Source: an uncultured Gammaproteobacteria bacterium (GTDB lineage Bacteria; Pseudomonadota; Gammaproteobacteria; QNFE01; CAZPSE01). From it: DNA of 64,000 nt. Position numbers and translations under genes: made by a program. Below are positions 1,264 through 52,591 of the stretch, in pieces. Each line of letters opens with the position of its first letter. Position 1 is the first letter of the stretch. Under the pieces are notes generated by a model. That model made no database searches. It was not told where the DNA came from and worked only from the letters and a program-made list of their open reading frames with translations. The stretch spans positions 81-64,080 of the forward strand of contig CAZPSE010000006.1 in assembly GCA_964589575.1 (NCBI GenBank), written 5' to 3'.

Positions 1264-4200
1264 ATGTCAGATAAAAATCACGATACCGAAGAACTTGGTT
1301 TAGCTGGAAAACTTGCTAAAAACTTTATACATTCACCCTTATCACCGCTACTACTCATTGTTTCCTTAGCCGTTGGAATTATTGGTTTAATATTAACACC
1401 ACGTCAAGAAGACCCGCAAATTTCGGTACCTATGGTCGATATTTTTGTTGGTTATCCTGGTGCATCAGCTGATCAAGTTTCAACCTTAGTTGCCGTTCCA
1501 TTAGAACGAATGATGAGCGAAATAACAGGTGTTCGGCATGTTTATTCTGCCTCTCAAAGAGAAATGGGAATGGTGACCGTGCAATTTGAAGTAGGCCAAG
1601 AAATGGAAAAATCCATTTTTAAAGTTTATGACAAAATTCATTCTAATAAGGATGTTATGCCCGCAGGCGTACAAGGTGCTTTAATTAAACCAAAAGCCGT
1701 TGACGATGTACCAGCTGTTACTTTAACGTTGTGGTCAGAAGAGGTTGCTGATTTTGAATTGCGCTTGTTAGCATTGGATGTTTTACAAAAAATAAAAGAA
1801 ATACCAGACACAAGCGCAAGTTTTATAGTGGGTGGTCGTTCTAAACAGGTACGTATAGAACCCTTGCCAGAAAAACTAGCAGGTTACGGTGTAACTTTAG
1901 GTGCCCTAGCTAATACCATCAAAACAGCCAATTCAGAAATGGGAGTAGGCACGGTCGAAGCATGGGATTCATCATTTAGTATTTATACAGGGTCGTTTTT
2001 AACTAACGCAGCAGACATTGAAAAACTAGTCGTAGCCATTATTAATGGTGCGCCCGTATATATGAGTGATGTTGCCAATGTAATAGATGGCCCAGCTGAA
2101 ACCAAAAATTTAGTACATTACTATACAGGTAACGCCTATCAAGGTGATGCGAACCTCGATATGGGCGCGCCAGCGGTTACAATCGCCATAGCCAAGAAAA
2201 AAGGTAGTAATGGTGTCACCGTAGCACAAAACATTTTAGATAGAGTTGAGTCATTAAAAGGCACGCTAATACCCAATAACGTAATGGTAGAAATCACCCG
2301 TAATTACGGTGAAAGTGCAGACAAAAAAGTAAGTTCATTGCTTCAAAAATTATTTATTGCCACTGGCATCGTCGTATTGTTGGTTTGGGGGTTTTTAGGT
2401 ATTCAAGCTGCAACAGTTGTTTTAATTGTCATCCCCGTTGTAATATTAATAACTGTTTTTGCTGCGCTAGTACTGGGTTTGACTATTGATAGGGTTAGTT
2501 TATTCGCACTAATTTTCTCAATTGGAATACTAGTAGATGATGCTATTGTTGTGGTCGAAAATATCTATCGGCGATGGTTAATGCGAGGTGAAATTCATAC
2601 AGGAACATCTATAGATGCTGTTAGAGAAGTAGGAAACCCTACTATTTTAGCGACCTTTACAGTTATAGCAGCGTTAATGCCAATGGGTATGGTACGCGGA
2701 ATGATGGGTCCGTATATGAGCCCGATTCCTATATTGGGTTCAGTAGCCATGATATTTTCATTGTTTGCTGCATTTACTTTTACGCCTTGGTTGGTAATGC
2801 GTATAAAACCTTCTATGAAGCGTTTAAAACAAATGGAAGCAAAAGAGCATAAACAAGAAGTGTTTTATGAAAAATTGTATCGCTCAATTTTGATTCCATT
2901 AATTTCAAGCAAAGCAAAAGGGCGTCTATTTTTAACATTCTTGTTTGTCTTGTTTTTTGCAAGTTGTTCTTTGTTTTACTTTAATGTTGTAAAAGTAAAA
3001 ATGTTGCCATTAGACAATAAGCCAGAATTTAACGTGGTTATTAATTTCCCAGCGGGTACGGCACTACCTGTTACCGAAAATTTAATACGAAAGCTGTCTC
3101 ATAAAATAAAACAAATTGAAGAAGTAACCGCTTTGCAAACTTATGCAGGCACCGCATCGCCTTATAACTTTAATGGTTTGGTACGTCATACTTATTTACG
3201 AGAATCACCTTGGCAGGGCGATATACAAGTTCAGTTAACCGATAAAGAAACGAGAGAGCGCACAAGTCACGAAATAGCCGTAGCTGTACGCGCCATGGTT
3301 AGGCCTATTGTTAAAGCTTATGGTGCAAAAGTACAAGTAGTAGAAATGCCACCAGGTCCTCCAGTACTTCAATCTGTTGTTGCAGAAGTTTATGGACCCA
3401 CAGATGAAATTAGGCGACAAGTCGCGACAGATTTAACCGCTATGTTTGAAGAGGCTGAAAATTTAACAGATGTTGATAATTTAATGCAAAAAGAATATGA
3501 CGTTTGGCGTTTTGAAGTGAATACTGAAAAAGCAAACCGCCGTGGTGTTTCTGTTGAAGAAATTAATAAAAACTTGCTTATGGCAATGGGTGGTTTTGTT
3601 TTAGGCGACATTAAAGTAGGGCATGTATTAGAACCACGTGAAATTGTTTTACAAATACCCATGTCTGCAAGAGCAGAGTTTTCGAGAATAGGTACCTTGC
3701 CCATTATGAGTAGTCAAGGTTATACCATTCCACTTTCTGAACTGGGCGAATTTATAAAAGACAAACAAAATAAAATTATTTTCCATAAAGACTTAAGACC
3801 CGTAGAGTTTGTAACGGCAGAAGTTCAAGCACCATTACCTGCACCTGTATACGGCATGTTTGAGGTGGGCGATAAGTTGGACGATTATACCGCACCAGAT
3901 GGTGTTAAATTGTCGGGCGAATGGTTTGGCCCACCTGCAACATCGGATGTTTCAGGGTTTGAGTGGACAGGGGAGTGGACAGTAACCTTTGAAACATTTA
4001 GAGACATGGGTATAGCATTTGGAGGCGCAATTTTATTAATTTATATGTTGGTGGTTTGGGAGTTCGGTAACTTCACATTGCCAGCTATCATTATTTCTCC
4101 AATTCCTTTAACGTTAGTTGGTATCATTCCTGGTCACTGGATAATGGGGGCTGAGTTTACCGCAACATCAATGATTGGTTTCATTGCCTTGGCGGGGATA

Positions 4201-5031
4201 ATCGTCAGAAACTCGATATTAATTGTAGATTTTACCAATCAACGAGTTAGAGCTGGTGAAGAGTTAGTCGAGGCTGTGATTACATCTTGCAAAGTAAGAA
4301 CACGGCCAATTTTAATTACCGCTTTAGCTTTAATGGGCGGATCATTGGTTATTCTTGCTGATCCTATATTTCAAGGTATGGCAGTTTCATTGTTGTTTGG
4401 AATGTTTGTATCTACATTATTAACGCTTATTGTTATTCCATTAGGTTGTATTACTGCAAAGTCATCTTTTGTTTTTGATACTGACCCTGACAATGGAGGA
4501 TTTGGCGGAGGTGGACAAGTGTTGCCAAGCTCTACTCCTCCTAGTGATGCGCATGTATCTAAAGTAAAATCGTATGAACCCAGTATTATTGAAAAATTTA
4601 TTGGTTTGTTATCTATAATTGCTATATATATTGGGCTTTTATGGTCAATGTTAATGTCTATTATGCCCGCACCGATAAGAAACTTTTTTGAAAAAGTAAC
4701 AGGCTTTTTAGCCATTATTAAAATTTACTTAGGATTGTTGTTATCGCCTTTATTCGCCTTTTTTAAGTCTAAAGAGCCAGAGCCTACTGCTGTAAAAGCT
4801 CAAGTGCCTGTGCCTGCATCGACAAACACAGATACTAAGGCCAAAGAAGAAACTAAAGCCAAAGAAGACACTAAAGCCAAAGAAGACACTAAAGCCAAAG
4901 AAGACACTATTTCTAAAAAAAGCACATCGAAGAAAAAGGCTACTAGTAAAAAGAAAACAACATCAAGTAAAAAAACAACCAGCAAAAAAAATGTAAGAAG
5001 AGGGATTAAGCTTAAAAAAGATTTGGAGTAA
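1264..5031 (+). CDS. RND (AcrB/HAE-type) inner-membrane transporter with an atypical ~200-aa C-terminal extension and lysine-rich tail
   Basis: 1255 aa. The N-terminal TM1 plus large periplasmic loops and 12-TM architecture are recognisable as AcrB/CzcA family. After TM12 there are two extra hydrophobic segments and a TKAKED x4 repeat followed by an SKKK-rich tail. Confidence 0.85.
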   Translation: MSDKNHDTEELGLAGKLAKNFIHSPLSPLLLIVSLAVGIIGLILTPRQEDPQISVPMVDIFVGYPGASADQVSTLVAVPLERMMSEITGVRHVYSASQREMGMVTVQFEVGQEMEKSIFKVYDKIHSNKDVMPAGVQGALIKPKAVDDVPAVTLTLWSEEVADFELRLLALDVLQKIKEIPDTSASFIVGGRSKQVRIEPLPEKLAGYGVTLGALANTIKTANSEMGVGTVEAWDSSFSIYTGSFLTNAADIEKLVVAIINGAPVYMSDVANVIDGPAETKNLVHYYTGNAYQGDANLDMGAPAVTIAIAKKKGSNGVTVAQNILDRVESLKGTLIPNNVMVEITRNYGESADKKVSSLLQKLFIATGIVVLLVWGFLGIQAATVVLIVIPVVILITVFAALVLGLTIDRVSLFALIFSIGILVDDAIVVVENIYRRWLMRGEIHTGTSIDAVREVGNPTILATFTVIAALMPMGMVRGMMGPYMSPIPILGSVAMIFSLFAAFTFTPWLVMRIKPSMKRLKQMEAKEHKQEVFYEKLYRSILIPLISSKAKGRLFLTFLFVLFFASCSLFYFNVVKVKMLPLDNKPEFNVVINFPAGTALPVTENLIRKLSHKIKQIEEVTALQTYAGTASPYNFNGLVRHTYLRESPWQGDIQVQLTDKETRERTSHEIAVAVRAMVRPIVKAYGAKVQVVEMPPGPPVLQSVVAEVYGPTDEIRRQVATDLTAMFEEAENLTDVDNLMQKEYDVWRFEVNTEKANRRGVSVEEINKNLLMAMGGFVLGDIKVGHVLEPREIVLQIPMSARAEFSRIGTLPIMSSQGYTIPLSELGEFIKDKQNKIIFHKDLRPVEFVTAEVQAPLPAPVYGMFEVGDKLDDYTAPDGVKLSGEWFGPPATSDVSGFEWTGEWTVTFETFRDMGIAFGGAILLIYMLVVWEFGNFTLPAIIISPIPLTLVGIIPGHWIMGAEFTATSMIGFIALAGIIVRNSILIVDFTNQRVRAGEELVEAVITSCKVRTRPILITALALMGGSLVILADPIFQGMAVSLLFGMFVSTLLTLIVIPLGCITAKSSFVFDTDPDNGGFGGGGQVLPSSTPPSDAHVSKVKSYEPSIIEKFIGLLSIIAIYIGLLWSMLMSIMPAPIRNFFEKVTGFLAIIKIYLGLLLSPLFAFFKSKEPEPTAVKAQVPVPASTNTDTKAKEETKAKEDTKAKEDTKAKEDTISKKSTSKKKATSKKKTTSSKKTTSKKNVRRGIKLKKDLE
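4834..4905 (+). repeat. 4 x 18-bp perfect/near-perfect in-frame tandem repeat (actaaRgccaaagaagaM) encoding TKAKEE/TKAKED
   Basis: Read directly in the sequence. Units start at 4834, 4852, 4870 and 4888. Confidence 0.95.
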
Positions 5032-16603: not shown

Positions 16604-16794
16604 TTTGTATTTATATAGTTGAAATAAGTTGTATTTTTAGGCTGTTTTTGGTATAAATGCGCCTGCTTTGAAAGAGTGGTTCTTTTAAACAAAAATTCTC
16701 ACACGTAGTCAACATTAATCACGGGTGCTTTTATTAATTTAAAAAGTTGTGATTATGTTACGTGGACGTCTAACCCAATTCTATAGGAATTATT

Positions 16795-23892: not shown

Positions 23893-26166
23893 ATGATTAA
23901 AATAATATCGTTACTTTTGGTTTTATTACCCGCAAGTGTTTCTGCAGACAGCTATTTCCATATAGATAATATTAAAATTGAAGGTGCTACTAGAATTTCT
24001 AAAGAGGCACTTTTAAGTTATTTACCTTTAAAAAATGGTCGGTTGGATATGTCAGACTCGGCTTATGTGATTAAACAACTATTTAAAGAAAATGTTTATA
24101 AAGACATACAGCTTTTTGCAGATGGCGATAACTTATTAATAAAAGTTGTAGAAAGACCGTCGATAGACAGTATTTCATTTGACGGCAATAAAAAACTTGA
24201 AGACAAACAACTAGAAAGCATTTTAAATGATGCAAATATTAAAAAAGGAAGAACGTTTAACCGTTCAATATTAAGCAGGATAGAAACGGAATTAAGAAAG
24301 TTTTACGTAAGTTTTGGTAAATACAGTGTTCAAATTGACACAGAACTGGTCAAATTAAAACGAAACAGGGTGGCATTAAAAGTAAAAATATTTGAAGGCA
24401 ATGTTTCAAAAATTCAACAAATTAATATAATTGGAAACACCGTTTTTAGTGATGACAAATTATTATCGTTAATGGAACTGGGTATTGTGTCTGAAATAAA
24501 TCCCTTTAGTAGCGCAGATGAATACTCAAAAGCAAAACTGTCGGGTGATATTGAGATTCTTAAAACCTATTATTTAGACAGAGGCTACCTTCGTTTTGCC
24601 ATTAAATCGACTCAAGTAAAATTATCGCCAGACAAAGAAAATGTATTTATAAGTATACATTTATCAGAAGGAGAACAGTACAGCGTTAGTGAAGTCGATA
24701 TTAAAGGCGATTTTAAATTAGAAAAATCCATTTTATTTGATAAATTAACGATCAAAAGTAACAGCGTTTTTTCTCGTAAAAAGATGATAAATTCATCTAA
24801 AAACATTAAAGATAGGTTAGGTGATGACGGTTATGCTTTTGCTACGGTTAGCCCAATACCCGAAATAAATGAAGAAAACAAATCCGTTAAATTAACGTAT
24901 TTAGTTAACGCAAAAGATAGGGTTTATGTAAGAAGAATTAATATACAAGGTAACACTAAAACCCACGATGAAGTATTTCGTCGTGAATTTAGACAACTAG
25001 AAAGTGCCTTATTATCACCTCGATTATTAGACCGGTCAAAAATCAGAATACAACGTTTAAGTTATGTTGCTTCTGTAAATAATGAAATTACCCGCGTACC
25101 CAATTTAACCGATCAGGTTGATATAACAACAAGTATCGTTGAAAGGGAGTCAGGCTCGTTTTCTATTGGTGGTGGTTTTTCTAATAATGAAGGTCTATTA
25201 TTTAACCTAAGTTTTGCACAGTCTAATATATTAGGTACAGGTAAAAATATAGGAATTAATTTTGATAATAGCTCCGTCAATAAAAAGTTGTCGCTGACAC
25301 TAATTAATCCATATTACACACTTGATGGTATTAGTCGGTCTTTAAGTGTTTATTTTTCTGAGGTTGATGCCAGTAGAATATCTACTACTGCAGATTATTT
25401 GACCAATAATACGGGGGGTTCAATAAGTTATGGAATACCACGAAGCGAAACTGAAACACTCAATCTAGCTATTGGCATTGATCAAACGCGTATTTCTACA
25501 ACAACAAAAACACCGACGTCTATAAGCGATTTTTTAGCAGTTAAGGGAAAAGATTTTGATGAGATAAAGCTTTCTGCAAGTTATGTGAACGATACCCGAA
25601 ATAGAACAGTATTTGCATCAACAGGTTCTAAGCATAGCCTATCGTTAGAAATGTCGGTACCAGGAAGTACCTTAGAATATTACAAATCAACGTATAGATT
25701 AGAATATAATAAAGCACTGACGGATTTAACTACGTTAGTATTTAGAAGCAATATTTCGTACGGTCACTCTTATTCGTCTGACGAGTCATTAGCCTTTTTT
25801 AAGCGTTATTATGCTGGTGGTGTGCACTCGATTAGAGGATACAGGTTTGCAGGTGTTGGGGTTAAAGATACAGATGGGCGTGCTTTAGGCGGTGATTTAC
25901 TTACTACTGGTTCGTTAGAAATAGTCATTCCTCCCTTTGATTCTGACTTATCATCGTCGGTACGTTATAGTTTATTTAGTGATTTTGGTACGGTCTTTAG
26001 TAAAGCTAGCGATGCCAATATAAGTGATATACGCTACTCAGTAGGTGCCGCTTTTAAATGGTTGTCACCTGTTGGGCCTTTAAATTTTAGCATTACCAAT
26101 GCGGTCAATGCAGACAGTACAGATTTTACCGAGTCATTTCAGTTTTTTATTGGCGGTCAATTTTAA
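23893..26166 (+). CDS. bamA: Outer membrane protein assembly factor BamA
   Basis: 757 aa with signal peptide, POTRA repeats and a C-terminal beta-barrel ending in ...FFIGGQF. Confidence 0.9.
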   Translation: MIKIISLLLVLLPASVSADSYFHIDNIKIEGATRISKEALLSYLPLKNGRLDMSDSAYVIKQLFKENVYKDIQLFADGDNLLIKVVERPSIDSISFDGNKKLEDKQLESILNDANIKKGRTFNRSILSRIETELRKFYVSFGKYSVQIDTELVKLKRNRVALKVKIFEGNVSKIQQINIIGNTVFSDDKLLSLMELGIVSEINPFSSADEYSKAKLSGDIEILKTYYLDRGYLRFAIKSTQVKLSPDKENVFISIHLSEGEQYSVSEVDIKGDFKLEKSILFDKLTIKSNSVFSRKKMINSSKNIKDRLGDDGYAFATVSPIPEINEENKSVKLTYLVNAKDRVYVRRINIQGNTKTHDEVFRREFRQLESALLSPRLLDRSKIRIQRLSYVASVNNEITRVPNLTDQVDITTSIVERESGSFSIGGGFSNNEGLLFNLSFAQSNILGTGKNIGINFDNSSVNKKLSLTLINPYYTLDGISRSLSVYFSEVDASRISTTADYLTNNTGGSISYGIPRSETETLNLAIGIDQTRISTTTKTPTSISDFLAVKGKDFDEIKLSASYVNDTRNRTVFASTGSKHSLSLEMSVPGSTLEYYKSTYRLEYNKALTDLTTLVFRSNISYGHSYSSDESLAFFKRYYAGGVHSIRGYRFAGVGVKDTDGRALGGDLLTTGSLEIVIPPFDSDLSSSVRYSLFSDFGTVFSKASDANISDIRYSVGAAFKWLSPVGPLNFSITNAVNADSTDFTESFQFFIGGQF

Positions 26167-26190
26167 CAAAGGAAACATCGTTTAAAAATC

Positions 26191-26721
26191 ATGATAAACA
26201 TTAAAAAAACAATATTAATCATTACTTTAGTTTTAGTAAGTAATGTAACGGCTGCCGAATTGAAAATTGGCTATATTAATTTTCCTGCAGTTTTAGAAGC
26301 ATCACCTCAAGCTAAATTAGCAACTAAAACTCTGCTTGATAAGTTTACGCCTCGCCAAAAATCCATCGCTTTAGATGCAGAACGTTATCACTCATTAGTC
26401 ACTAAGTTAGAAAAAGATTCGTTAATTTTAAGCACCGAGCAATTAGCCGTTACAAAATCAGAAATTTTAAAACTAGAAAGAAAACTCAAGCGAGATGAAC
26501 AAGAATTTAGAGAAGAGCTCAATGTACAAAAAAATAGTGAATTAAAGAAAACTAGAGATCTTATCCTAAAAGCTATTCACGTATATGCAGAAGAAAATGC
26601 CTACGATTTAATTCTTGCAGAAGGTGCTTTATACGCAAGCAACAAAGTTAATATAAGTGCAAAAATATTAGAAGTTTTAAACAATAAAAACAATTCAAAG
26701 ACCGAACAAGTAGAAAAGTAA
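26191..26721 (+). CDS. skp: Periplasmic chaperone Skp (OmpH)
   Basis: 176 aa with a signal peptide and coiled-coil sequence. Its position between bamA and lpxD supports the call. Confidence 0.8.
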   Translation: MINIKKTILIITLVLVSNVTAAELKIGYINFPAVLEASPQAKLATKTLLDKFTPRQKSIALDAERYHSLVTKLEKDSLILSTEQLAVTKSEILKLERKLKRDEQEFREELNVQKNSELKKTRDLILKAIHVYAEENAYDLILAEGALYASNKVNISAKILEVLNNKNNSKTEQVEK

Positions 26722-27685
26722 TGAAATTAGTTGATATTGCCAATCAGCTAAACTTGTCATTTAAAGGAGATTCAGATACCTGTATTACTCAGTTTTACAG
26801 TAAAGAATGCCCATTAAAAAATTCAATAAAATATTTAGGAAATAAAGCGAGTTATAAAGGCTTAAGCAATTCGTACATTTCTGCTGTTATTATTTCTGTT
26901 GAAAATGCAAAAAATTACAATGGCAATTGTTTGATAGATAATAATCATTATTTAGCTTTTTCTAACATAAGCCGTTTACTATCCCCTGATCAAATCCCCG
27001 CTTACTCCATTCATTCTACCGCATACGTTTTTACTAAGGCTAAACTTGGTAATAATGTTAGCATTGGGCCGCAGTGTGTTATTGAAGACAATGTAGAAAT
27101 TGGCGATAACTCAATTTTAGGTGCTGCCTGCATTATTGCTAATGACGTAAAAATAGGCGAAGGTACCTATTTTTTTCCTAAAGTGACGGTTTATCAACAC
27201 TGCACTATAGGAAACAATGTTCGTATTCAATCTGGTGCAATTATAGGCAGTGAAGGTTTTGGTTATGCAAGACAAGACAACCCAACGGCTGGAGTAGAAT
27301 TGCACATACAGGAAAGGTCATTATTGGCAATGATGTGCAGATTGGTGCAAACACAACTATTGATAGAGGCACAATTGACGATACGGTAATTGAGGATGGG
27401 GTTATTTTAGATAACTTAATTCAAATTGCTCATAATGTACATATAGGTAAAAATAGCGCTTTAGCTGGCTGTGTAGGTGTTGCTGGAAGTGCAACAATAG
27501 GAGAAAACTGTACAATTGGTGGCGGTGCTGGTGTTTTAGGGTATTTAACTATTGCAGAAGATGTTCATATAACCTTTATGTCATTAGTCACAAAATCAAT
27601 AAAAAATGCTGGACAATATTCATCTGGTGGTTTATTGGAAAAGACATCGAGTTGGAGAAAAATGCAATACGATTTAAACAGTTAA
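26721..27685 (+). pseudogene. lpxD: UDP-3-O-acylglucosamine N-acyltransferase LpxD, interrupted by a 1-nt deletion (frameshift at about 27279-27289)
   Basis: ORF 26721..27389 matches LpxD up to GFGYARQDN. The conserved continuation [29 protein letters not shown] is in the +2 frame and leads into ORF 27335..27685. Adding one nucleotide in ccaac/ccc restores a 321-aa LpxD. Confidence 0.8.
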
Positions 27686-27724
27686 ATGAACTGTTTAAAA
27701 AAATAAAAATTAATAGGTAAAATT

Positions 27725-28174
27725 ATGAACGAAATGAATATTCATGAAGTATTAAAGTATTTACCCCATCGTTACCCTTTTTTATTAATAGACAGAGTTA
27801 TCGACTTTGAAAAAGGGAAGTCAATAACCGCCATTAAAAATGTTACTATTAATGAACCAATCTTTACTGGTCATTTTCCAGATTACCCAATTTTCCCTGG
27901 CGTTTTAATAATTGAAGCAATGGCGCAAGCGTCTGCCATATTGGGCTTTCAAACTGGCGGTGGCGTACCTTTAGACGATGCTTTGTATTTATTTGTAGGT
28001 ATAGATAAAGCCAGATTTAAACGTCAAGTTACGCCCGGTGATCAAATTGTATTTACAGTAGAGGTGGTTAATAATAAGCGCGGAATATGGAAATTTAAAG
28101 CAGTAGCAAAAGTTGACGATATAATCGTCTGTGTTGCAGACATTATGTGTGCCATTAGGGAAAAGACATTATGA
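27725..28174 (+). CDS. fabZ: 3-hydroxyacyl-ACP dehydratase FabZ
   Basis: 149 aa, [13 protein letters not shown] hotdog motif. Confidence 0.95.
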
Positions 28175-28941
28175 TTCATGCTACCGCCATTATTGATGAA
28201 TCGGCCATTATTGCGGACGATGTAGAAATAGGTGCTTATACAATAATTGGTGAAAAGGTGGAAATTGGTTCAGGCTGTTGGATAGGGCCTCATGTGGTTT
28301 TATCTGGCCCGACTAAAATGGGTGAAAACAATAAAATTTATCAATTTGCGTCAATTGGTGACGCACCTCAAGATTTAAAATATGATGGCGAAGATACCGT
28401 TTTAGAAATTGGTAACAACAATACAATAAGGGAATATTGCACCATGAACAGAGGTACGCCAGATGGCGGTGGTATTACCAAAGTAGGTAATGATAATTTG
28501 TTTATGGCATACACTCATATCGCACATGATTGCCAAATAGGCAACCACACAATATTTTCTAATGCAGCGTCTTTAGCTGGGCATGTAGTCATTAATGATT
28601 ATGTAATTTTAGGTGGGTTCACTTTAGTCCATCAATTTACTAAAATTGGAGCGTATAGTTTTTCTGGCATGGGTGCGGCGATTAATCGAGATGTACCACC
28701 TTATTGTATTGTTTCAGGCAGCATGGCAAAAGCTTTTGGAATAAATAAAGTTGGGCTAAAACGACACGGTTTTTCTGCAGAAACCATTAAAAGCTTACAC
28801 AAAGCATTTAAGTTGCTAATTAAATCAAAAGGATCAAGAAAAGATAATATTGAGCAAGTAAAACAAATAGCAAAAGAGTCGGATGAAGTACAAAATATGC
28901 TAACGTTTATTACCGAAAGCGAACGTGGCATTGTCCGTTAA
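28171..28941 (+). CDS. lpxA: UDP-N-acetylglucosamine acyltransferase LpxA
   Basis: MIHATAIID start, left-handed beta-helix hexapeptide repeats, 256 aa. Confidence 0.95.
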
Positions 28942-28952
28942 AATTAATGATT

Positions 28953-29600
28953 CTAGGTGCTTTCTTTTTGCTCTTTTAATAGGTAATAAGACAGTGTTTT
29001 TGATACAAAATAAACACTAAAAAAGGCAAATATAACGTCACTCAAAAAATGTCCACCTTGAGCTATTCTACCTTAGCCTATAACGCTTCCAGTAAAAACC
29101 CCCGCAAATAATAATGATTTTTTTCTAGTTTTACTAAACCAATATAAATTGATAAAGAAAAAACCCATTGACGCATATCCACTAACAAAATAATAACCGG
29201 TTTTTTTATTATTGCTTATAACAAAAGCTGGGCTATGTTTTTCAGTCCCACCAAATTCTTCAATATGCAAAGGTCTGGCTTTATTCCAATTTTTTTTAGA
29301 ACAACGTTAACTAATAAACCTGGGGCAATAAACAAAACGTTTGCGATTGTTTTTAATAAACTGGGGCAGTTTACTCACATAACTTGCCAAAATAAAAACG
29401 CCAGTTAATACAAGGCAGAGCTTGGCAAGAATAGGAACTAAATCATATAAAAAATTTGTCCACAGCATATCGCCATATTTAAACCCTTGCTCAGGAGTGT
29501 AAAAAAATTGGCTAAAAGCAATATCAATTTTAGGAAATAGAAAAAATATGAACCCTAAAAGTACCAGAGCAATTAAGTCGTAATAAGGTTTTAGTCGCAA
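28953..29600 (-). pseudogene. PAP2-family (acid phosphatase / lipid phosphatase) gene with two in-frame TAA stops and degenerate catalytic motifs
   Basis: A single minus-strand reading frame reads ...FIS-TAA(29307-29309)-RCSKKNWNKARP (the KX6RP motif) ... VSGYAS (PSGH with His replaced by Tyr) ... VIG-TAA(29073-29075)-GRIAQGGHFLSDV (SRX5HX3D with Ser replaced by Gly) ... stop at 28953. The frame is preserved but it carries two nonsense codons. Confidence 0.6.
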
Positions 29601-42407: not shown

Positions 42408-43148
42408 ATGGCTAAAATTGATTCAAACCCTTTAGGTATCTCTAATGGTTTAATAAATAAATATAAGAATATAAAAAGGCCATACCAAAAATACAAAAAA
42501 TCACCCGTTACTTTCGAAGTGGCAGAGGATTGTTTTGTAAATTGTCGCGCCATAGTGGTAAAAGACAAAACCTATGTTGTGCCACGGCACATTAATCGTG
42601 TTGATATTTGTTCAGGAAAAAATAATAAAGGCACACATGGCTGGCAATTACGTTATAAAAAAATATCTAAATTTTATAATGACCGTAAACAATCGTCTAT
42701 TAAGTTAGGCTTAGAAAAAGCCAAAAATGACTTACGAAAAGGTTATGTAGCTAAAGACCATATAGAAATTGTAAATCAAAAACTAAATAAAAAAAATTTA
42801 AAAACTAAAAAAATAAAACTCATCCCTGGTGTTAATATCGCCTCGTCAACATTGGCTAAAACAATGGTAAAACACTACAACGTAGTTTGTTGTATTTCTG
42901 TTTTAAACGGTAAAGCAAGGCAGTTTACAAAATACTTATCGGTAGAAGAACGTTTAACCCAAGAAAAACTGAACAAGGCTTTAGATGTGCTTTTAACCTT
43001 ACGAAAATATTCGGAACATTTGTACCATACAAAACAGCCAGAAATTGCCAAAATACTAAGTGTAAAACACATTACGCCATTATTAATAAAAGAGTATTGC
43101 CCTAAAATTAAATACCCAACAATCCAACAAGTAGTCAAGGCGTATTAA
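42408..43148 (+). CDS. Basic (Lys/Arg-rich) orphan protein, possible DNA-binding, unknown function
   Basis: 246 aa. It is preceded by a 118-bp AT-rich gap. A weak AP2/integrase-DNA-binding-like stretch (GTHGWQLRYKK) is present. I could not assign a family. Confidence 0.4.
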   Translation: MAKIDSNPLGISNGLINKYKNIKRPYQKYKKSPVTFEVAEDCFVNCRAIVVKDKTYVVPRHINRVDICSGKNNKGTHGWQLRYKKISKFYNDRKQSSIKLGLEKAKNDLRKGYVAKDHIEIVNQKLNKKNLKTKKIKLIPGVNIASSTLAKTMVKHYNVVCCISVLNGKARQFTKYLSVEERLTQEKLNKALDVLLTLRKYSEHLYHTKQPEIAKILSVKHITPLLIKEYCPKIKYPTIQQVVKAY

Positions 43149-43152
43149 AGCT

Positions 43153-43680
43153 GTGCTAAAGGGTACGTTTATAGCTTCTATTAAAGATGGATGGTTTCGA
43201 GCGATGCTGTTTTCCTTAATTTGGTTAATACTTGTCGATGCTAATTGGGATTCTTGGTTATTTGCGGTTCCCGTCGTGCTGATAAGTACTTATGTGAGCA
43301 TATTATTACTGCCCAGTTTTTCCATTTCAATAATCGGCCTTATTCGTTTTATTCCTTATTTTCTTTGGCATTCTTTACGTGGTGGGCTAGACGTGGCGAT
43401 ACGTGTCTTCCAGATAAAATTACAAATTTCCCCTGCGATAGTAAGCTACCAATGGCGCTTACCGCCAGGGATTTCACGCGTATTTATGGCCAATGTCACA
43501 AGTTTACTGCCTGGTACATTAAGTGTAGAACTGGAAGATGAATTGCTTTATGTGCATGTTCTTGATGAGTCAATTGATTATTTTACTGATATGCAAGAGC
43601 TGGAAGAACGTATTGCCCAAATGCTTGGCATCTGTTTAAACAATCAAGAAAAAAACCAAATAAGGAATAAATTTAAATGA
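43153..43680 (+). CDS. Multisubunit cation/H+ antiporter subunit E (MrpE/MnhE/MbhA-like)
   Basis: 175 aa. Two N-terminal TM helices are followed by a soluble domain, and it is the first gene of an Mrp-type cluster. Confidence 0.65.
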   Translation: MLKGTFIASIKDGWFRAMLFSLIWLILVDANWDSWLFAVPVVLISTYVSILLLPSFSISIIGLIRFIPYFLWHSLRGGLDVAIRVFQIKLQISPAIVSYQWRLPPGISRVFMANVTSLLPGTLSVELEDELLYVHVLDESIDYFTDMQELEERIAQMLGICLNNQEKNQIRNKFK

Positions 43681-43952
43681 CTACGTTGTATTTAGTGGTT
43701 GCACTGTTTCTTTTACTAACGCTAGTAGTTGGTTTATGGCGTGTTTTACATGGGCCTACAGCTGCCGATCGTATGCTGGCGGCGCAGTTGTTTGGTACTA
43801 CGGCGGTTGCTTGTTTAATATTGCTTTCTCAAGCTTTAAAACAGCCGTCTTTTATAGATGTGGCCTTGGTATTTGCACTACTAGCGGTAGTCACCGCCGT
43901 GGCATTTATTAAACGTTTTTGGGCGGAGGAATCAAATCATGTCGATGATTGA
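43677..43952 (+). CDS. Antiporter subunit F (MrpF/MnhF-like)
   Basis: 91 aa, 3 TM helices; overlapping starts and stops with its neighbours. Confidence 0.65.
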   Translation: MTTLYLVVALFLLLTLVVGLWRVLHGPTAADRMLAAQLFGTTAVACLILLSQALKQPSFIDVALVFALLAVVTAVAFIKRFWAEESNHVDD

Positions 43953-44238
43953 TGTTTTAACTGCCATTTTCGTAATTACTGGTGCACTGTTTTTTTTAGC
44001 CGGTACCGTAGGTCTGCTGCGCTTTCCAGATGTTTATACCAGAATTCATGCTTTAACCAAAGCCGATAATTTAGGCCTTGGGTTAATAATAGTTGGGCTT
44101 ATTTTACAAGCAGAATCTCTTATATTTGTGGCTAAACTAATATTTATTTGGCTGTTAGTATTACTTTCTGGAGCGGGTGTTGCGCATTTAATTGCAACCG
44201 CTGCACGACAGCGAGGTGTTAAAACGTGGAAGCCATAA
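43939..44238 (+). CDS. Antiporter subunit G (MrpG/MnhG-like)
   Basis: 99 aa, 3 TM helices. Confidence 0.65.
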   Translation: MSMIDVLTAIFVITGALFFLAGTVGLLRFPDVYTRIHALTKADNLGLGLIIVGLILQAESLIFVAKLIFIWLLVLLSGAGVAHLIATAARQRGVKTWKP

Positions 44239-44534
44239 GTTTACTGTTGATATTTGATGTTTTAATCGGTTTAACCTTGCTTTGGCTAGCATGGCAAGCG
44301 TTAAGCAGCCCCGATTTATTTCGTGCTGTTGTGTTATTTATCGCCTTTGGTTTATTAATGGCTTTGGCATGGGTTCGTTTAGACGCGCCAGATGTGGCCC
44401 TAGCAGAAGCGACAATAGGCGCGGGTTTAACCGGTGCATTACTACTTTCCTCGTTGGCGCGTATCCGTTTAGAGTCAAATAGAAGCAAGAACATTAAAAA
44501 TAAAAACAGCATAAGTGCAACGAAAGATACTTAA
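44226..44534 (+). CDS. MrpB N-terminal-like small membrane subunit (DUF4040/MbhD-like)
   Basis: 102 aa, 3 TM helices. It is in the position of MbhD in Mbh/Mrp modules. Confidence 0.5.
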   Translation: MEAISLLLIFDVLIGLTLLWLAWQALSSPDLFRAVVLFIAFGLLMALAWVRLDAPDVALAEATIGAGLTGALLLSSLARIRLESNRSKNIKNKNSISATKDT

Positions 44535-44539
44535 TAACT

Positions 44540-45226
44540 ATGGACGATGACATCAAACAACCGCCTTTATTTATTAGGCTACTACTTATACTGTTGTTAG
44601 GCGGGTTAACGGTAAGTTTGTCGGTGGCTATTTTGTCTTTGCCAGAACAAGCACCAGGTTTAAGTACAGATGTTGCTGAAAATTTAAATAAAAGTGGGGT
44701 AAGCAACCCCGTTACTGCCGTTTTACTTAATTACCGAGCTTACGATACCTTGCTAGAGCTGGGTGTACTGTTTTTAGCATTACTAGGTATTTGGTCGCTT
44801 GGGGAAAGCGCTAAACCCATAAACGCTAAACCAGGCCCTGTATTAGATATACTATCTCGTGTGTTAACACCATTACTTATTTTGGTTGCGGGTTACCTTT
44901 TATGGGTTGGTGCTTATCAACCAGGTGGTGCTTTTCAAGCTGGCGCGGTATTAGGGGCTGCGGGCGTTTTACTGTTATTAAGTGGTTGGCAACTCAATGC
45001 CAAATATGCAGGTTTTGCTTTTCGTGTTAGCGTGGTTGCAGGTTTGCTTATTTTTGTCATTATTGGTTTAACTTTTATCTTGTTTTCTAACCAGTTTCTT
45101 CAATACCCACCTTATTACGCACCCGGTTTGATTTTATTTATAGAAACCGCGGCAACTGTATCTATTGGGATAAGCTTAGTCGCGCTTTTTTTAGGCGGTG
45201 AACCAAAATCGGGGCTACAAAAATGA
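44540..45226 (+). CDS. Antiporter subunit B (MrpB/MnhB-like)
   Basis: 228-aa polytopic membrane protein. Confidence 0.6.
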   Translation: MDDDIKQPPLFIRLLLILLLGGLTVSLSVAILSLPEQAPGLSTDVAENLNKSGVSNPVTAVLLNYRAYDTLLELGVLFLALLGIWSLGESAKPINAKPGPVLDILSRVLTPLLILVAGYLLWVGAYQPGGAFQAGAVLGAAGVLLLLSGWQLNAKYAGFAFRVSVVAGLLIFVIIGLTFILFSNQFLQYPPYYAPGLILFIETAATVSIGISLVALFLGGEPKSGLQK

Positions 45227-45528
45227 GTTCAACATTTTTTTATGCATTAGTGGGCGTAGGTTTATTTAGCATTGGTATCTATGCCTTAATTATTTATGCC
45301 CATTTATTACGTAAAATTCTTGCAATTAATGTTATGGGCAGTGGCGTGTTTTTGGTGTTAGTGGCATTAGCCACACGAACAGGTGCAACCCCAGATGCAG
45401 TACCCCATGCAATGGTTATAACCGGTATTGTAGTTGCGGTATCTGCTACCGCTTTGGCACTGGCATTACTGTTAAAAGTACAATCAGAAACTGGCAGTGT
45501 AGAACTGCCAGAAGAACCGTTGGAGTAG
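45223..45528 (+). CDS. Antiporter subunit C (MrpC/MnhC, NuoK-like)
   Basis: 101 aa, 3 TM helices, NuoK-like. Confidence 0.75.
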   Translation: MSSTFFYALVGVGLFSIGIYALIIYAHLLRKILAINVMGSGVFLVLVALATRTGATPDAVPHAMVITGIVVAVSATALALALLLKVQSETGSVELPEEPLE

Positions 45529-45531
45529 ATA

Positions 45532-46977
45532 TTGATAGAAGGTTTTCATTGGCTAATTTTTGTTATATTTACCCCTCTTATAGGGGCGGTAAGTTGCTTT
45601 TTATGGCCTAAATACAACGTAAAACTGGCATTAATCACAACGTTTTTGTCGGTGTTTAGTGTTGCGGGTCTCACTTGGCAAATTGTCATTTATGGCGCGC
45701 AACGTTATAAATTGGGCGGTTGGGATGCACCGTTAGGTATACATCTTTATGTAGACGGTTTAAGCCTGTTAATGTTAATAATAACGGCTGTTGTAGGTTT
45801 GGCTATTAGTGTTTATTCTTCTGCTTATTTTAAAGCAGAAAAAGCCAAATATTTTTGGCCATTATGGTTGTTTTTGTGGTCGGCTTTAAATGGCTTATTT
45901 GTATCTGCGGATATTTTTAATCTTTTTGTTACATTAGAATTAATAGGTTTATCGGCAGTTGCTTTGGTCGCCTTGTCTGGTGGTGCTAATGCGATAACGT
46001 CTGCAATGCGTTATTTATTAGTGAGTTTACTCGGCTCACTCTTTTACCTTATGGGCGTAGCCTTGCTTTATCACAGTTATGGCACGGTCGATATTATGAT
46101 GTTGGGGCAACAGGCACAATTAACACCCACCATGTGGTTAGCTATCGGTTTAATTACTTCGGGCTTGCTGCTTAAAACTGCACTGTTTCCAATGCATTTT
46201 TGGTTGCCACCGGCACACTCTAGTGCGCCTACACCTGTTAGTGCGTTATTGTCAGCGTTAGTGGTTAAAGCTTCTTTTTATATTTTGTTGCGGTTGTGGT
46301 TAGACGTATTTCCATTAACTATAGAACCTGCAACAATTAATATTGGCATGATTTTAGGTTTGCTAGGTTCGACGGCAATAATTTGGGGCGGCGTTCAAGC
46401 ATTGCGTCAAACACGGTTAAAATTATTGGTTGCTTATTCAACCGTAGTACAAATTGGTTATATGTTTTTGGCCTTTCCTTTAGCAAGTATTTTAGGCTGG
46501 AAAGCCGCGCTTTATTTTGTACTGGCACATGCTGTTGCCAAAACGGCCATGTTTATGGCAGCAGGTAATATTTTGTTTTACGGAGGACATGATCGCATTG
46601 TAGATTTGGACAGAGTTGCCCAGCGTTTGCCCATAACTTTAATAGCATTTGGTGTTGCAGGCGTTAGCCTTATGGGGTTGCCACCAAGTGGTGGCTTTAT
46701 TGCAAAATGGTTATTACTAGAGGCGGCGATTGTTTCCGGTCAATGGTGGTGGGGTTTAATGTTAATAGCTGGGGGGTTACTAACCGGTACCTATGTGTTT
46801 AAAGTTATTGGTTATGCTTTTACAGAAGCAGAATGCCCGCATGAAGCTAAAAAGGTGCCTAAAATTATGGAATGGACGGCATTAATGATGGCTATATTGG
46901 CAATAGTATTGGGTTTTCTTGCACCGGTATTGCTGCCGTTAATGGAAATTGGTACTCCGTTTGGTGAAAGTTTATGA
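45532..46977 (+). CDS. Antiporter subunit D (MrpD-like, NuoN/NuoM family), TTG start
   Basis: 481 aa. It has about 14 TM helices and proton-pumping antiporter-like conserved regions (HFWLPxAH). Confidence 0.75.
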   Translation: MIEGFHWLIFVIFTPLIGAVSCFLWPKYNVKLALITTFLSVFSVAGLTWQIVIYGAQRYKLGGWDAPLGIHLYVDGLSLLMLIITAVVGLAISVYSSAYFKAEKAKYFWPLWLFLWSALNGLFVSADIFNLFVTLELIGLSAVALVALSGGANAITSAMRYLLVSLLGSLFYLMGVALLYHSYGTVDIMMLGQQAQLTPTMWLAIGLITSGLLLKTALFPMHFWLPPAHSSAPTPVSALLSALVVKASFYILLRLWLDVFPLTIEPATINIGMILGLLGSTAIIWGGVQALRQTRLKLLVAYSTVVQIGYMFLAFPLASILGWKAALYFVLAHAVAKTAMFMAAGNILFYGGHDRIVDLDRVAQRLPITLIAFGVAGVSLMGLPPSGGFIAKWLLLEAAIVSGQWWWGLMLIAGGLLTGTYVFKVIGYAFTEAECPHEAKKVPKIMEWTALMMAILAIVLGFLAPVLLPLMEIGTPFGESL

Positions 46978-48473
46978 TGAATTGGGAAAGCTGGATGCCA
47001 CTATCAGTTGTTCTTAGCTCATTTATTGTTGCGCTATTAATTTTCCCCTTGTCAGAAGAGAAAGCGAAAACCCGTATGATTTTAAACATGGCAGGTGCTT
47101 TGTTTAAGCTGGCATTGGTTATTGCCATGTTGTGGGGCGTGTATAACGGTTATCATTTTGAAACCCGCATAGCGATGTTACCTGGGCTAGACTTTGTTTT
47201 AAGAGCTGATGCCTTGTCTATGTTGTTTGTAACGCTTTCTGCGGGTCTTTGGTTATTAACTACCGTTTACGCTATTGGTTATCTCGAAGATTCCCCTCAT
47301 CGAAGCCGTTTTTTTGGTTTTTTTAGCCTTTGTGTAACGGCAACAGTAGGTGTTGCACTGTCAGGTAATTTACTTACATTTTTGGTGTTTTACGAACTCT
47401 TAACACTGGCAACCTACCCATTAATTGTACACAGAGGAACAGAAGCTGCACGTAAAGCAGGGCGGACTTATCTTGTTTATACCCTATCTGGTGGTGCAAT
47501 GCTTCTGCTTGGTACAATTTGGTTATACACCATTACTGGCACGCTAGAATTTACTCCTCAGGGGTTTGTTTCAGCCTTAGACAGTTCCTACCATCCGTCA
47601 CTTATTATTATTTTTGTATTGTTAATGATTGGCTTGGGTGTCAAAGCGGCACTTATACCTTTTCATGGCTGGCTGCCTCAATCTATGGTTGCCCCTGCAC
47701 CGGTAAGTGCCTTATTGCATGCGGTGGCCGTTGTAAAAGCCGGGGCGTTTGGCATTATTAGGGTGCTTTACGATGTGTTTGGAATAGAATTTAGTGCCAC
47801 CTTGGGCGTAACTTTACCCTTAGCAATTATTGCCGGAGTAACCGTTATATATGGCTCGACGCGGGCGCTCTTTCAGGACGATTTAAAACGACGATTGGCA
47901 TTCTCCACCGTCAGTCAAGTTTCTTACATTATTCTTGGTGTTGCTATAGTGGGCCCAGTAGCCACCATTGGTGGCATGGTGCATTTAGTGCACCAAGGGG
48001 TAATGAAAATAACCCTGTTTTTTTGCGCCGGTAACTTTGCAGAAACGCTGGGTATACACAAAATAAGTGAAATGAACGGGGTAGGTAAACGCATGCCATG
48101 GACTATGGCGGCTTTTACCATTGGTGCTTTTGGTATGATTGGTGCGCCCCCACTTGCGGGTTTTATTAGTAAATGGTATTTAGGCGTGGGTGCGTTAGAG
48201 GCAGGCCAAGGCTGGGTAATATACATTTTGGTAGGCAGTAGTTTGCTAAATGCCGCTTATTTTTTACCTATTTTATACGCCGCTTGGTTTAAACCACAAA
48301 TAGGAAAATGGCCAGCCGAACGCAAATTTGGCTCTTTTGAAACCGCTTTAGCATTATTGGCACCGCCGGTTATAACAGCAATATTGGCGGTGTTATTGGG
48401 TTTACTGGCATCGACTCCTTTTAGCCCGCTAGAGTGGGCGCGTTTTATTACCTTAAAGGAATATCGATTGTGA
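46974..48473 (+). CDS. Second MrpD/NuoM-like antiporter subunit
   Basis: 499 aa with FHGWLP and VHQGVMK motifs typical of NuoM/MrpD. Confidence 0.75.
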   Translation: MMNWESWMPLSVVLSSFIVALLIFPLSEEKAKTRMILNMAGALFKLALVIAMLWGVYNGYHFETRIAMLPGLDFVLRADALSMLFVTLSAGLWLLTTVYAIGYLEDSPHRSRFFGFFSLCVTATVGVALSGNLLTFLVFYELLTLATYPLIVHRGTEAARKAGRTYLVYTLSGGAMLLLGTIWLYTITGTLEFTPQGFVSALDSSYHPSLIIIFVLLMIGLGVKAALIPFHGWLPQSMVAPAPVSALLHAVAVVKAGAFGIIRVLYDVFGIEFSATLGVTLPLAIIAGVTVIYGSTRALFQDDLKRRLAFSTVSQVSYIILGVAIVGPVATIGGMVHLVHQGVMKITLFFCAGNFAETLGIHKISEMNGVGKRMPWTMAAFTIGAFGMIGAPPLAGFISKWYLGVGALEAGQGWVIYILVGSSLLNAAYFLPILYAAWFKPQIGKWPAERKFGSFETALALLAPPVITAILAVLLGLLASTPFSPLEWARFITLKEYRL

Positions 48474-48540
48474 AACATTATCTAAGCTTGGCTCTAGTAA
48501 TTGACGTGTTAAAACTGCCGAGTGTTTTAGTGACTACCGC

Positions 48541-50367
48541 TTGGCTAAGCAAAGGCGTGTCTCTTTTATGATGGCATTAACACCCTCACTATTTTTATTA
48601 ATGGTGCCTACTTTACCTTTTTTGCTAGCAGTAGCATTAATGGTCAGTTCTAAACGTGACAAACTGGTTTTTTTGGCACCTTGGGTTATTTTACCCGCGT
48701 TATTGTTGCCCATAATATTACCAGTAGGGTTTGAGCTTGAACTGCCGTGGATGTTATTAGGTGTTCATTTAGGTTATGACGATACTGCTAGAGTTTTTTT
48801 GATTTTTAGTTCAATACTTTGGTTAGTGGCCAGTATATATGCCTTTGGCTATTTTGATAATAAGGCTGAAAAAACAAACTTTTTTAGTTACTTCATGTTG
48901 GCTATGACGGGTAATTTTGGTCTTATACTGGCCCAAGACGTACTGATGTTTTTTACCTTCTTCACTTTAATGAGCCTTGCCAGCTATGGTTTGGTGGTAC
49001 ACAACCGTGGTGTAGAGGCTTTAAGAGCAGGGCGTATTTACATCATTTTAGTGATTGTTGCAGAAGTCACTTTGTTTGCCGGCTTTGTTATGGCCACTTT
49101 AGCGGCAGGTAGTACAGAGTTTGTTGATTTTCGCAGATTAATCCCTTTGTCAGATTCTAAAGACGTAATTATGGCATTGGTATTTTTAGGTTTTGGTATT
49201 AAAGCTGGGGTAATTGGTTTGCATGTTTGGTTACCATTAGCGCACCCCGTTGCGCCCACGCCAGCTAGTGCGGTTCTTTCGGGGGCTATGATAGCGGCAG
49301 GTTTATTGGGTTGGATGCGTGTAATGCCACTTGGCGAAGCGGCTTTACCCTTTTGGGGTGCCGTTATGATTATTGCCGGCATGGTTGCTACTTTTTACGC
49401 CGTTTTTGTTGGGGTATTACAACGTAACGCAAAAACAGTTTTGGCTTACTCTAGCATTAGCAGCATGGGCATTATGACTATGGCGACTGGTTTAGGGCTT
49501 ATTGCGCCTAATAATTGGCCATTTATTTTAACTGCTATTTTAGTCTATGTTATGCAGCATGGCCTTGCTAAGGGTGCATTATTTCTTGGCGTGGGGTTAT
49601 GTGCAAAACCTGTCGTATCTCGTAGCTTGCGCTACTTGTTTATTGTGGCATTACTCATTCCCGTACTCACTTTGGCGGGTGCGCCACTAACAAGTGGATT
49701 AATTGCTAAGCATTTACTAAATATACAGTTAATAGAAGCCGCATCGCCTTGGGCAAATTGGGTGCAAATGCTACTACCTTGGAGTGCCATAGCAAGCAGT
49801 GCACTTTTAATTCGTTTTTTATTTTTAGTTTGGCCACAAGCAAATGATACAAGCGACTCTAAAGCGGTTTTAACTACCCCTGTAATGTTAGCAAGCTATA
49901 TTAAATGGGGTTCTTGGTTAGCATTGGTTGCCGTAGTTGCACTTAGCCCGTGGTTGGTTTCGTTAATAATAATTAAAGATGGCTCGACACCCTATTACTG
50001 GTCAATAGCATCATCAATTAGCGCGTTGTGGTCTATAGTATTGGCCTTAACCGTAGCGGCAGGCGCATGGTTTATTACACGCCATACCCTGTTTTATAAA
50101 AAGTTGGCTATACCCGCAGGTGATATGGTTATTATTGTAGAACAATGGCTATGGCCGCAACTCGTGTTAATGGTATCAATGGTTTTTACTGTATTAAATA
50201 AACCAAGGTTATTTTTATTAGCCAAAATAAATGAATGGCTTAATGGTGACAATTTAACTTCTGTGATGACGAGTTTAGAGGTGCGATGTAAACACTGGAC
50301 AGTGGCAACAACTTTGTTGCTGGTACTGGTTGCTGTGTTTGTTTTTACCCTTAGCGTTTATGGTTAA
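48541..50367 (+). CDS. MrpA/NuoL-like large antiporter subunit (lacks the MrpB-like C-terminal domain)
   Basis: 608 aa, polytopic, with a WLPLAHPVAPTP motif. Confidence 0.7.
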   Translation: MAKQRRVSFMMALTPSLFLLMVPTLPFLLAVALMVSSKRDKLVFLAPWVILPALLLPIILPVGFELELPWMLLGVHLGYDDTARVFLIFSSILWLVASIYAFGYFDNKAEKTNFFSYFMLAMTGNFGLILAQDVLMFFTFFTLMSLASYGLVVHNRGVEALRAGRIYIILVIVAEVTLFAGFVMATLAAGSTEFVDFRRLIPLSDSKDVIMALVFLGFGIKAGVIGLHVWLPLAHPVAPTPASAVLSGAMIAAGLLGWMRVMPLGEAALPFWGAVMIIAGMVATFYAVFVGVLQRNAKTVLAYSSISSMGIMTMATGLGLIAPNNWPFILTAILVYVMQHGLAKGALFLGVGLCAKPVVSRSLRYLFIVALLIPVLTLAGAPLTSGLIAKHLLNIQLIEAASPWANWVQMLLPWSAIASSALLIRFLFLVWPQANDTSDSKAVLTTPVMLASYIKWGSWLALVAVVALSPWLVSLIIIKDGSTPYYWSIASSISALWSIVLALTVAAGAWFITRHTLFYKKLAIPAGDMVIIVEQWLWPQLVLMVSMVFTVLNKPRLFLLAKINEWLNGDNLTSVMTSLEVRCKHWTVATTLLLVLVAVFVFTLSVYG

Positions 50368-50697: not shown

Positions 50698-52591
<1,894 letters not shown>

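Follow-up and report, generated by a model that had tools for sequence, protein, structure and literature searches.

The window analysed here, that is, the whole stretch of 64,000 nucleotides (64 kb) of gammaproteobacterial DNA, has 37% G+C, is 94% coding and carries the gene cluster rpsB-tsf-pyrH-frr-uppS-cdsA-dxr-rseP-bamA-skp-lpxD-fabZ-lpxA. The skp-lpxD-fabZ-lpxA context within this cluster follows a gene order common to the relatives L064 and L070, and intact lpxD genes of 331-338 aa are present in the same cluster in the four relatives L064, L065, L066 and L070. In L070, where lpxD is 331 aa long, skp-lpxD-fabZ-lpxA is followed by PAP2 and folD, both on the minus strand, in the same order as in the window. 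The genes that flank lpxD in the window are:

23893-26721, plus strand: bamA and skp, intact, upstream of lpxD
27725-28174, plus strand: fabZ, intact, downstream of lpxD (PF07977)
28171-28941, plus strand: lpxA, intact (NF003657, 366 bits against a cut-off of 226)

All invariant residues are kept in the products of lpxA and fabZ, with 0 private deviations at invariant columns. After lpxA, the relatives carry smpB or PAP2-folD instead of lpxB (L064 and L070, compared with window positions 28941-29600). Because the relatives have smpB or PAP2-folD there, the absence of lpxB from its canonical position is ancestral and does not represent decay. We considered the missing lpxB as a sign of pathway loss and rejected it, the two closest relatives likewise being without lpxB at this position. 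At the other end of the cluster, upstream of rpsB, lies an Rfam t44 RNA (rpsB leader; 16680-16774, plus strand), which is usual for gammaproteobacteria.

As for the host, its SerS is 79% identical to ENA metagenome proteins and ~68% identical to proteins of Cocleimonas, Leucothrix and Thiotrichaceae; judged by these matches, its affinity among named organisms appears to be best with Thiotrichaceae-type bacteria. The closest intact homologues of lpxD are just 55-60% identical, and the DNA of two close LpxD homologues, those of L064 and L070, was recovered. Against the genome contigs of GTDB representatives, the restored LpxD gave nothing above 43% identity, and a close genome is absent from that set. 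By ORF structure and family scans, three of the ~62 genes in the window are disrupted, i.e. lpxD with two frame breaks, an LpxF-like gene and serS.

The lpxD locus is made up of the following parts and lesions:

26721-27281, plus strand: lpxD 5' part in frame 0, codons 1-187, with the uridine-binding N-domain and the first left-handed beta-helix coils
27282-27286, plus strand: frame break 1, an extra CCAAC that resembles the preceding ACAAC as an imperfect tandem copy
27287-27661, plus strand: lpxD middle part in frame 2, GWSRIAHTG to SSWRK, holding the catalytic His-Asn (IAHNV)
27335-27685, plus strand: ORF B as called mechanically, 116 aa, with a GTG start and the out-of-frame tail MQYDLNS before its stop
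27542-27544, plus strand: TAT codon, active-site His to Tyr (H275Y), equivalent to E. coli LpxD H276 via the 3eh0 alignment offsets
27658-27662, plus strand: frame break 2, an A5 run where the nearest relative has A6; 1-nt deletion, frame 2 to frame 1
27661-27720, plus strand: lpxD 3' end in frame 1, TAA included, encoding the conserved C-terminal helix

Frame breaks and substitutions in lpxD

An earlier reading made from the sequence only had placed a frame switch within lpxD at 27275-27292, and three-frame translation bears this out. LpxD-like sequence occupies frame 0 over 26721-27281, continues in frame 2 over 27287-27661 and follows frame 1 between 27661 and the stop codon at 27718-27720. 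The frame 0 segment ends with GFGYARQDN, in which codon N187 occupies 27279-27281; the frame 2 segment picks up at AAC/GGC TGG (27284/27287) and closes with the AAA codon of SSWRK at 27659-27661, and the TAA ends 4 nt before fabZ. The first fragment, ORF A (26721-27389), matches positions 1-184 of TIGR01853 (lipid_A_lpxD) with E=6e-41 and 140.5 bits; for ORF B, the match covers positions 204-314 (E=4.6e-40, 137.5 bits). Each fragment on its own is below the cut-off of 242.5 bits, while the joined sequence scores 320.5 bits over profile positions 1-324 of 325. Thus, because both fragments match TIGR01853 and the joined sequence passes the cut-off, the frame switch is not a matter of chance.

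The restored LpxD aligns end to end with solved LpxD structures (E. coli 3EH0/4IHF and P. aeruginosa 3PMO/6UEC), and the alignment to E. coli LpxD covers residues 5-331. The N-terminal uridine-binding domain PF04613 has no match here at E<=0.01 and is matched by the closest relatives; the N-terminus is covered by TIGR01853 and by the structure alignments. The catalytic His (E. coli H239) is present in the IAHNV motif, and H238 and N239 occur without exception in the 118 homologues as well as in the window. The frame-1 tail aligns to the C-termini of the closest homologues and to that of P. aeruginosa LpxD, and the C-terminal helix of LpxD serves in a trimeric bundle and in ACP docking (PMC6286764). 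In other words, the locus resembles the LpxD family in its full profile match, its catalytic His-Asn and its canonical bamA-skp-lpxD-fabZ-lpxA cluster. It differs from the family in having no single uninterrupted ORF, the frame being broken twice, and in having Tyr in place of the second active-site His (H276).

Without CCAAC, the window reads GCA AGA CAA GAC AAC GGC TGG AGT AGA ATT GCA at the first break, and after this removal the match is codon for codon to the L070 counterpart, GCA AAA CAT AAA GAT GGT TGG AGT CGT ATT GCA. The loop that connects GFGxA to the following W has five residues in 111 of the 118 homologues; a 1-nt repair would give seven residues, a length seen in two of the 118. 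The break is thus explained most simply as a 5-nt insertion, which is more parsimonious than a 1-nt deletion, and CCAAC after ACAAC looks like an imperfect 5-nt tandem duplication. The alternative, loss of 1 nt from an ancestral loop that was 6 nt longer, needs two events. Accordingly, of the 1-nt deletion that had been suggested for lpxD, the net frame effect of -1 stands, and the 5-nt insertion fits the loop length and the L070 alignment better than the deletion does.

The second break had gone unnoticed. In the relatives, the site reads TGG CGA AAA AAT GCT ATT CGA TTT AAG (L070) and TGG CGC AAA AAT GCC ATT CGA (L064), and in the window TGG AGA AAA AT GCA ATA CGA TTT AAA. Read against these relatives, break 2 is a clean loss of 1 nt from an A6 run, and as such it would sever the conserved C-terminal helix. 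As a result, the proposal that one inserted nucleotide restores a full LpxD of ~321 aa does not hold, because the second frameshift at 27658-27662 makes the 7-residue tail of that product wrong. The properly restored LpxD is 331 aa long (333 aa under the 1-nt model for break 1), and an automated repair of lpxD that fixes one base would yield a wrong protein.

A perfect 11-bp inverted repeat, TTTAAACAGTT / AACTGTTTAAA, lies at 27673-27699 (plus strand) in the 3' end of lpxD, 10 nt past break 2. The hairpin that it can form is AT-only, with -9.5 kcal/mol and z=-2.7, and is probably a by-product of palindromic codons for FKQL and ELFK.

In addition to the frame breaks, lpxD carries the H275Y substitution. 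At the position of E. coli H276, His is found in 118 of 118 close homologues and in 32 of 34 distant ones, the other two having Gly; none has the Tyr that is found in the window. In E. coli LpxD, H276 contacts the UDP pyrophosphate and the H276A substitution lowers kcat 32-fold (PMC6286764). H275Y and Q196H are private changes at otherwise invariant columns, and the window is the sole sequence among 119 to have two such changes; Q196H also occurs in four of the 34 distant LpxD homologues. These substitutions by themselves are no proof of function loss. A relative-rate comparison with L064 against four outgroups gave no accelerated evolution of LpxD and, therefore, any inactivation of lpxD would be recent. 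Apart from its lesions the restored LpxD is well conserved, which counts against decay, the same pattern being equally expected from an artefact.

The LpxF-like neighbour and serS

Immediately downstream of lpxA, on the opposite strand, lies a second disrupted gene:

28953-29600, minus strand: LpxF-like PAP2 lipid A phosphatase pseudogene (NF045633 LpxF, 87 bits against a cut-off of 400; PF01569 PAP2)
after 29325, minus strand: lesion, deletion of 7 codons (21 nt)
29309-29307, minus strand: lesion, TAA
29177-29175, minus strand: lesion, TAT, SGH to SGY
29075-29073, minus strand: lesion, TAA

This gene stays in a single frame throughout; the 7-codon deletion falls in a transmembrane segment, and a conserved Cys pair is lost. 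An intact 219-aa PAP2 orthologue occupies the same position in L070 (lpxA-PAP2-folD). From its matches, the region is best described as an LpxF-like PAP2 remnant and not as a demonstrated LpxF, given that it fails both the NF045633 cut-off and the intact set of KX6RP, PSGH and SRX5HX3D motifs. Stop-codon reassignment was considered for the two in-frame stops and rejected, both being TAA, the commonest real stop codon in this DNA (40 of 61 ORFs). The decay of this adjoining lipid A gene is of the substitution type and, therefore, real gene erosion operates at this locus.

The third disrupted gene lies at a distance from the cluster:

50698-51971, plus strand: serS, split into ORFs of 217 aa and 193 aa; one A lost, TTC AAA [A]TA GGT

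That serS is also split had been claimed before, and indeed it has lost 1 nt in an A4 run at 51346-51348. The junction of the repaired gene, EEDLFKIGSE, is an exact match to homologues, and elsewhere in SerS the constraint is perfect, none of the 130 invariant columns having a private deviation. In almost all bacteria serS is an essential, single-copy gene. No Logan contig covers serS, and the neighbouring proteins either have no exact match on record or lie on contigs that end short. This break may reflect an error, an allele that segregates in the population or a lesion for which a second copy compensates. Its pattern resembles a sequencing or consensus error, which counts against decay of lpxD, and a dead serS would be hard to square with a living cell.

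Probable gene decay and its alternatives

We suggest that lpxD is probably a genuine, recently inactivated gene, that is, a young pseudogene. In this model, the LpxF-like phosphatase would have died before lpxD, through its four lesions. In lpxD, the 5-bp insertion at 27282-27286 would end normal LpxD after residue 187, the 1-bp deletion in the A6 run (27658-27662) would remove the C-terminal helix even if break 1 were repaired, and the change of the active-site His to Tyr would add to the damage; normal decoding of the locus would, thus, give no full-length LpxD. Decay in the window would fall mainly on lipid A genes, with serS as the sole other broken gene, and would have left bamA, skp, fabZ and lpxA intact. 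The lpxD mutations would be fixed in a living population, and the cell would either tolerate the loss of LpxD, for instance because a further lpxD paralogue lies elsewhere, a situation known from Francisella, or be in the course of losing or altering lipid A synthesis. The fully intact lpxA counts against decay of lpxD.

The sequence-only reading had left a choice between systematic homopolymer indel errors in the assembly and real gene erosion. Of these two, erosion is favoured by the agreement with Logan, the decay of the neighbouring gene and the substitutions. Systematic homopolymer error is not supported, given the long runs that are unbroken, the lack of any indel difference to Logan and an LpxF-like gene that was killed by substitutions, for which a chemistry prone to indels gives no explanation.

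The Logan contig SRR9822617_2799 (L001; 5,692 bp) contains both lpxD breaks, and its genes are called as 222 aa and 116 aa. Two SNPs and 0 indels separate it from the window; one SNP, G>A at 27121, causes G134D in lpxD, and the other, C>T at 28722, is a synonymous change in lpxA. Two other Logan contigs match the window at 100% identity; the three contigs, 12,358 bp in all, thus have 0 indel differences, and the two SNPs are the sole differences across 12.4 kb of Logan sequence. All three come from run SRR9822617, possibly the NCBI assembly's own reads, and they are therefore independent in the assembler used, though perhaps not in the underlying data. The SNPs indicate at least two haplotypes that would both carry the two lpxD breaks. 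When JGI metagenome contigs were scanned with allele-agnostic patterns, neither the break-1 site of lpxD nor the serS site gave a match.

A second line of evidence comes from the homopolymers. The unbroken ORFs contain 88 homopolymers of at least 7 nt and 250 of at least 6 nt, among them a T7 at 27170 in lpxD and two A7 in serS, whereas the frame breaks are at runs just 3 to 5 nt long. That long runs are intact and the breaks lie at short ones argues against a length-dependent indel error. Moreover, of the three frame breaks present in ~57 kb of coding sequence, two hit the same 1-kb gene, for which we estimate a chance of ~0.05, and such clustering fits an already-dead gene that is collecting further lesions.

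Of the other explanations, the one that survives best is that the gene is intact and the indels stem from the platform, from polishing or from consensus calling. We consider such a sequencing or assembly artefact unlikely. It implies that the true alleles are GACAACGGCTGG at 27276-27292, an A6 run at 27658-27662 and an A4 run at the serS site. Three frame breaks per 64 kb, one of them in the essential and otherwise perfectly conserved serS, are in line with error, as are the lack of rate acceleration in the restored LpxD, the location of two of the three break sites in A runs and the origin of the window in a 66-kb contig of a draft assembly. The Logan k-mer assembly, however, has the same indels, with 0 indel differences over 12.4 kb, and none of the 88 runs of at least 7 nt is broken, the breaks being at runs of 3-5 nt. 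The most fitting reading of break 1 is a 5-nt insertion, and no platform makes a homopolymer miscall of this kind; nor is H275Y an indel-type error. Finally, substitutions and a 21-nt deletion have killed the neighbouring gene, and genuine decay thus takes place in this DNA.

It is also conceivable, and in our estimate very unlikely, that the lesions are real without being fixed, the consensus having caught a defective allele or a strain mosaic while functional lpxD alleles persist in the population. The population is polymorphic, given the two SNPs between the window and L001, one of which is non-synonymous in lpxD (G134D), and the shortness of the Logan contigs is what one would expect if strain variation had broken the assembly graphs. 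Both consensus sequences, however, carry both breaks even though they differ at the SNPs, and a search of 5.8 billion protein clusters returned no near-identical intact LpxD, the next best match being 60% identical.

That lpxD is still expressed, through two -1 ribosomal frameshifts, through transcriptional slippage or as a two-piece enzyme, is highly improbable. P-site re-pairing after a -1 slip is possible at both breaks (C_CCA_A at break 1 and A_AAA_A at break 2), and the 11-bp AT hairpin follows 10 nt downstream of break 2; its distance is, however, just outside the 5-9 nt spacing for a stimulatory structure, it is explicable by the FKQL/ELFK codons, and neither break 1 (z=-1.25) nor the serS site (z=+0.38) is followed by significant structure. 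The lpxD genes of the relatives are uninterrupted, so that the slippery site is not conserved, and two sequential shifts of low efficiency would multiply. Programmed -1 frameshifting at lpxD was rejected on account of these single-frame relatives and the lack of significant structure after break 1. The A runs of 3-5 nt are far below the at least 8 nt known for useful transcriptional slippage. As for a two-piece enzyme, ORF B starts at GTG with no obvious ribosome-binding site, inspection by eye having revealed no Shine-Dalgarno-like sequence upstream of it, and ~17 residues of the beta-helix would be missing.

Comparison with known systems

LpxD had been called essential for lipid A synthesis, a statement that holds with qualification. 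In a few species, mutants in lpxA, lpxC or lpxD can live without lipid A, and two lpxD genes occur in some lineages. For instance, lipid A-deficient mutants are known in lpxA, lpxC or lpxD of Acinetobacter baumannii and in lpxA of Neisseria meningitidis and Moraxella catarrhalis. The locus described here is similar to these mutants in that small indels would inactivate an early gene of the Raetz pathway, other lpx genes are intact and the genome is otherwise a normal Gram-negative one. However, the mutants of Acinetobacter, Neisseria and Moraxella arise under laboratory or colistin selection, while here we deal with an environmental population, in which the rest of the pathway lies outside the window.

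Francisella has the LpxD paralogues lpxD1 and lpxD2 and the 4'-phosphatase LpxF. The similarities are that, among NCBIfam models, the neighbouring pseudogene matches LpxF best and that SerS is near to those of Thiotrichaceae-type bacteria. Unlike in Francisella, the LpxF match is far below its cut-off (87 versus 400 bits), and no second lpxD is present within the 64-kb window. A second LpxD, as in Francisella, would explain how the loss of lpxD is tolerated.

In insect endosymbionts such as Buchnera and Blochmannia, long poly(A) tracts allow transcriptional slippage that rescues frameshifted genes. The window shares with them frameshifts at A runs in conserved and apparently needed genes (lpxD break 2 and serS). 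It differs in that its tracts are 3 to 5 nt long, break 1 is most simply a 5-nt insertion, and the DNA is 94% coding with few pseudogenes.

Provided that the lesions are real, canonical LpxD and a lipid A-modifying phosphatase are gone from this lineage, which has kept lpxA, fabZ and the genes for outer-membrane assembly. This would point to an environmental bacterium in which a paralogue has replaced LpxD or lipid A is in the early stages of loss or remodelling. A more far-reaching scenario, which we regard as doubtful, is that a free-living-looking marine gammaproteobacterium is dismantling lipid A synthesis, with the phosphatase first and lpxD now, and that, with no backup lpxD elsewhere in the genome, it is heading for an outer membrane that is LPS-free or non-canonical. 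The case of lpxD would be a useful natural example, and yet one more instance of a common process, ordinary pseudogenisation. The contig should not be dismissed as full of homopolymer errors.

Three other regions of the window deserve mention. An AcrB/RND-like transporter of 1255 aa (1264-5031, plus strand) has a Lys/Thr/Ser-rich tail at ~4800-5031 with KAKE(D/E)T repeats, which is unusual for its family. A basic protein of 246 aa (42408-43148, plus strand), encoded between crcB and an Mrp/Mnh antiporter operon, has no Pfam or NCBIfam match and is found in exact form in the Logan contig L068. The operon itself, for an Mrp/Mnh-type cation/proton antiporter, spans 43153-50367 on the plus strand. 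Its small ORFs (43153-45528) were considered as further split genes and rejected, all of them being complete subunits; the scans identified six (MnhE, F, G, MbhD-like, MnhB and Oxidored_q2/MnhC-like). To the 3' side of these small ORFs, two MnhD-like proteins and an MnhA-like protein of 608 aa were recognised by eye.
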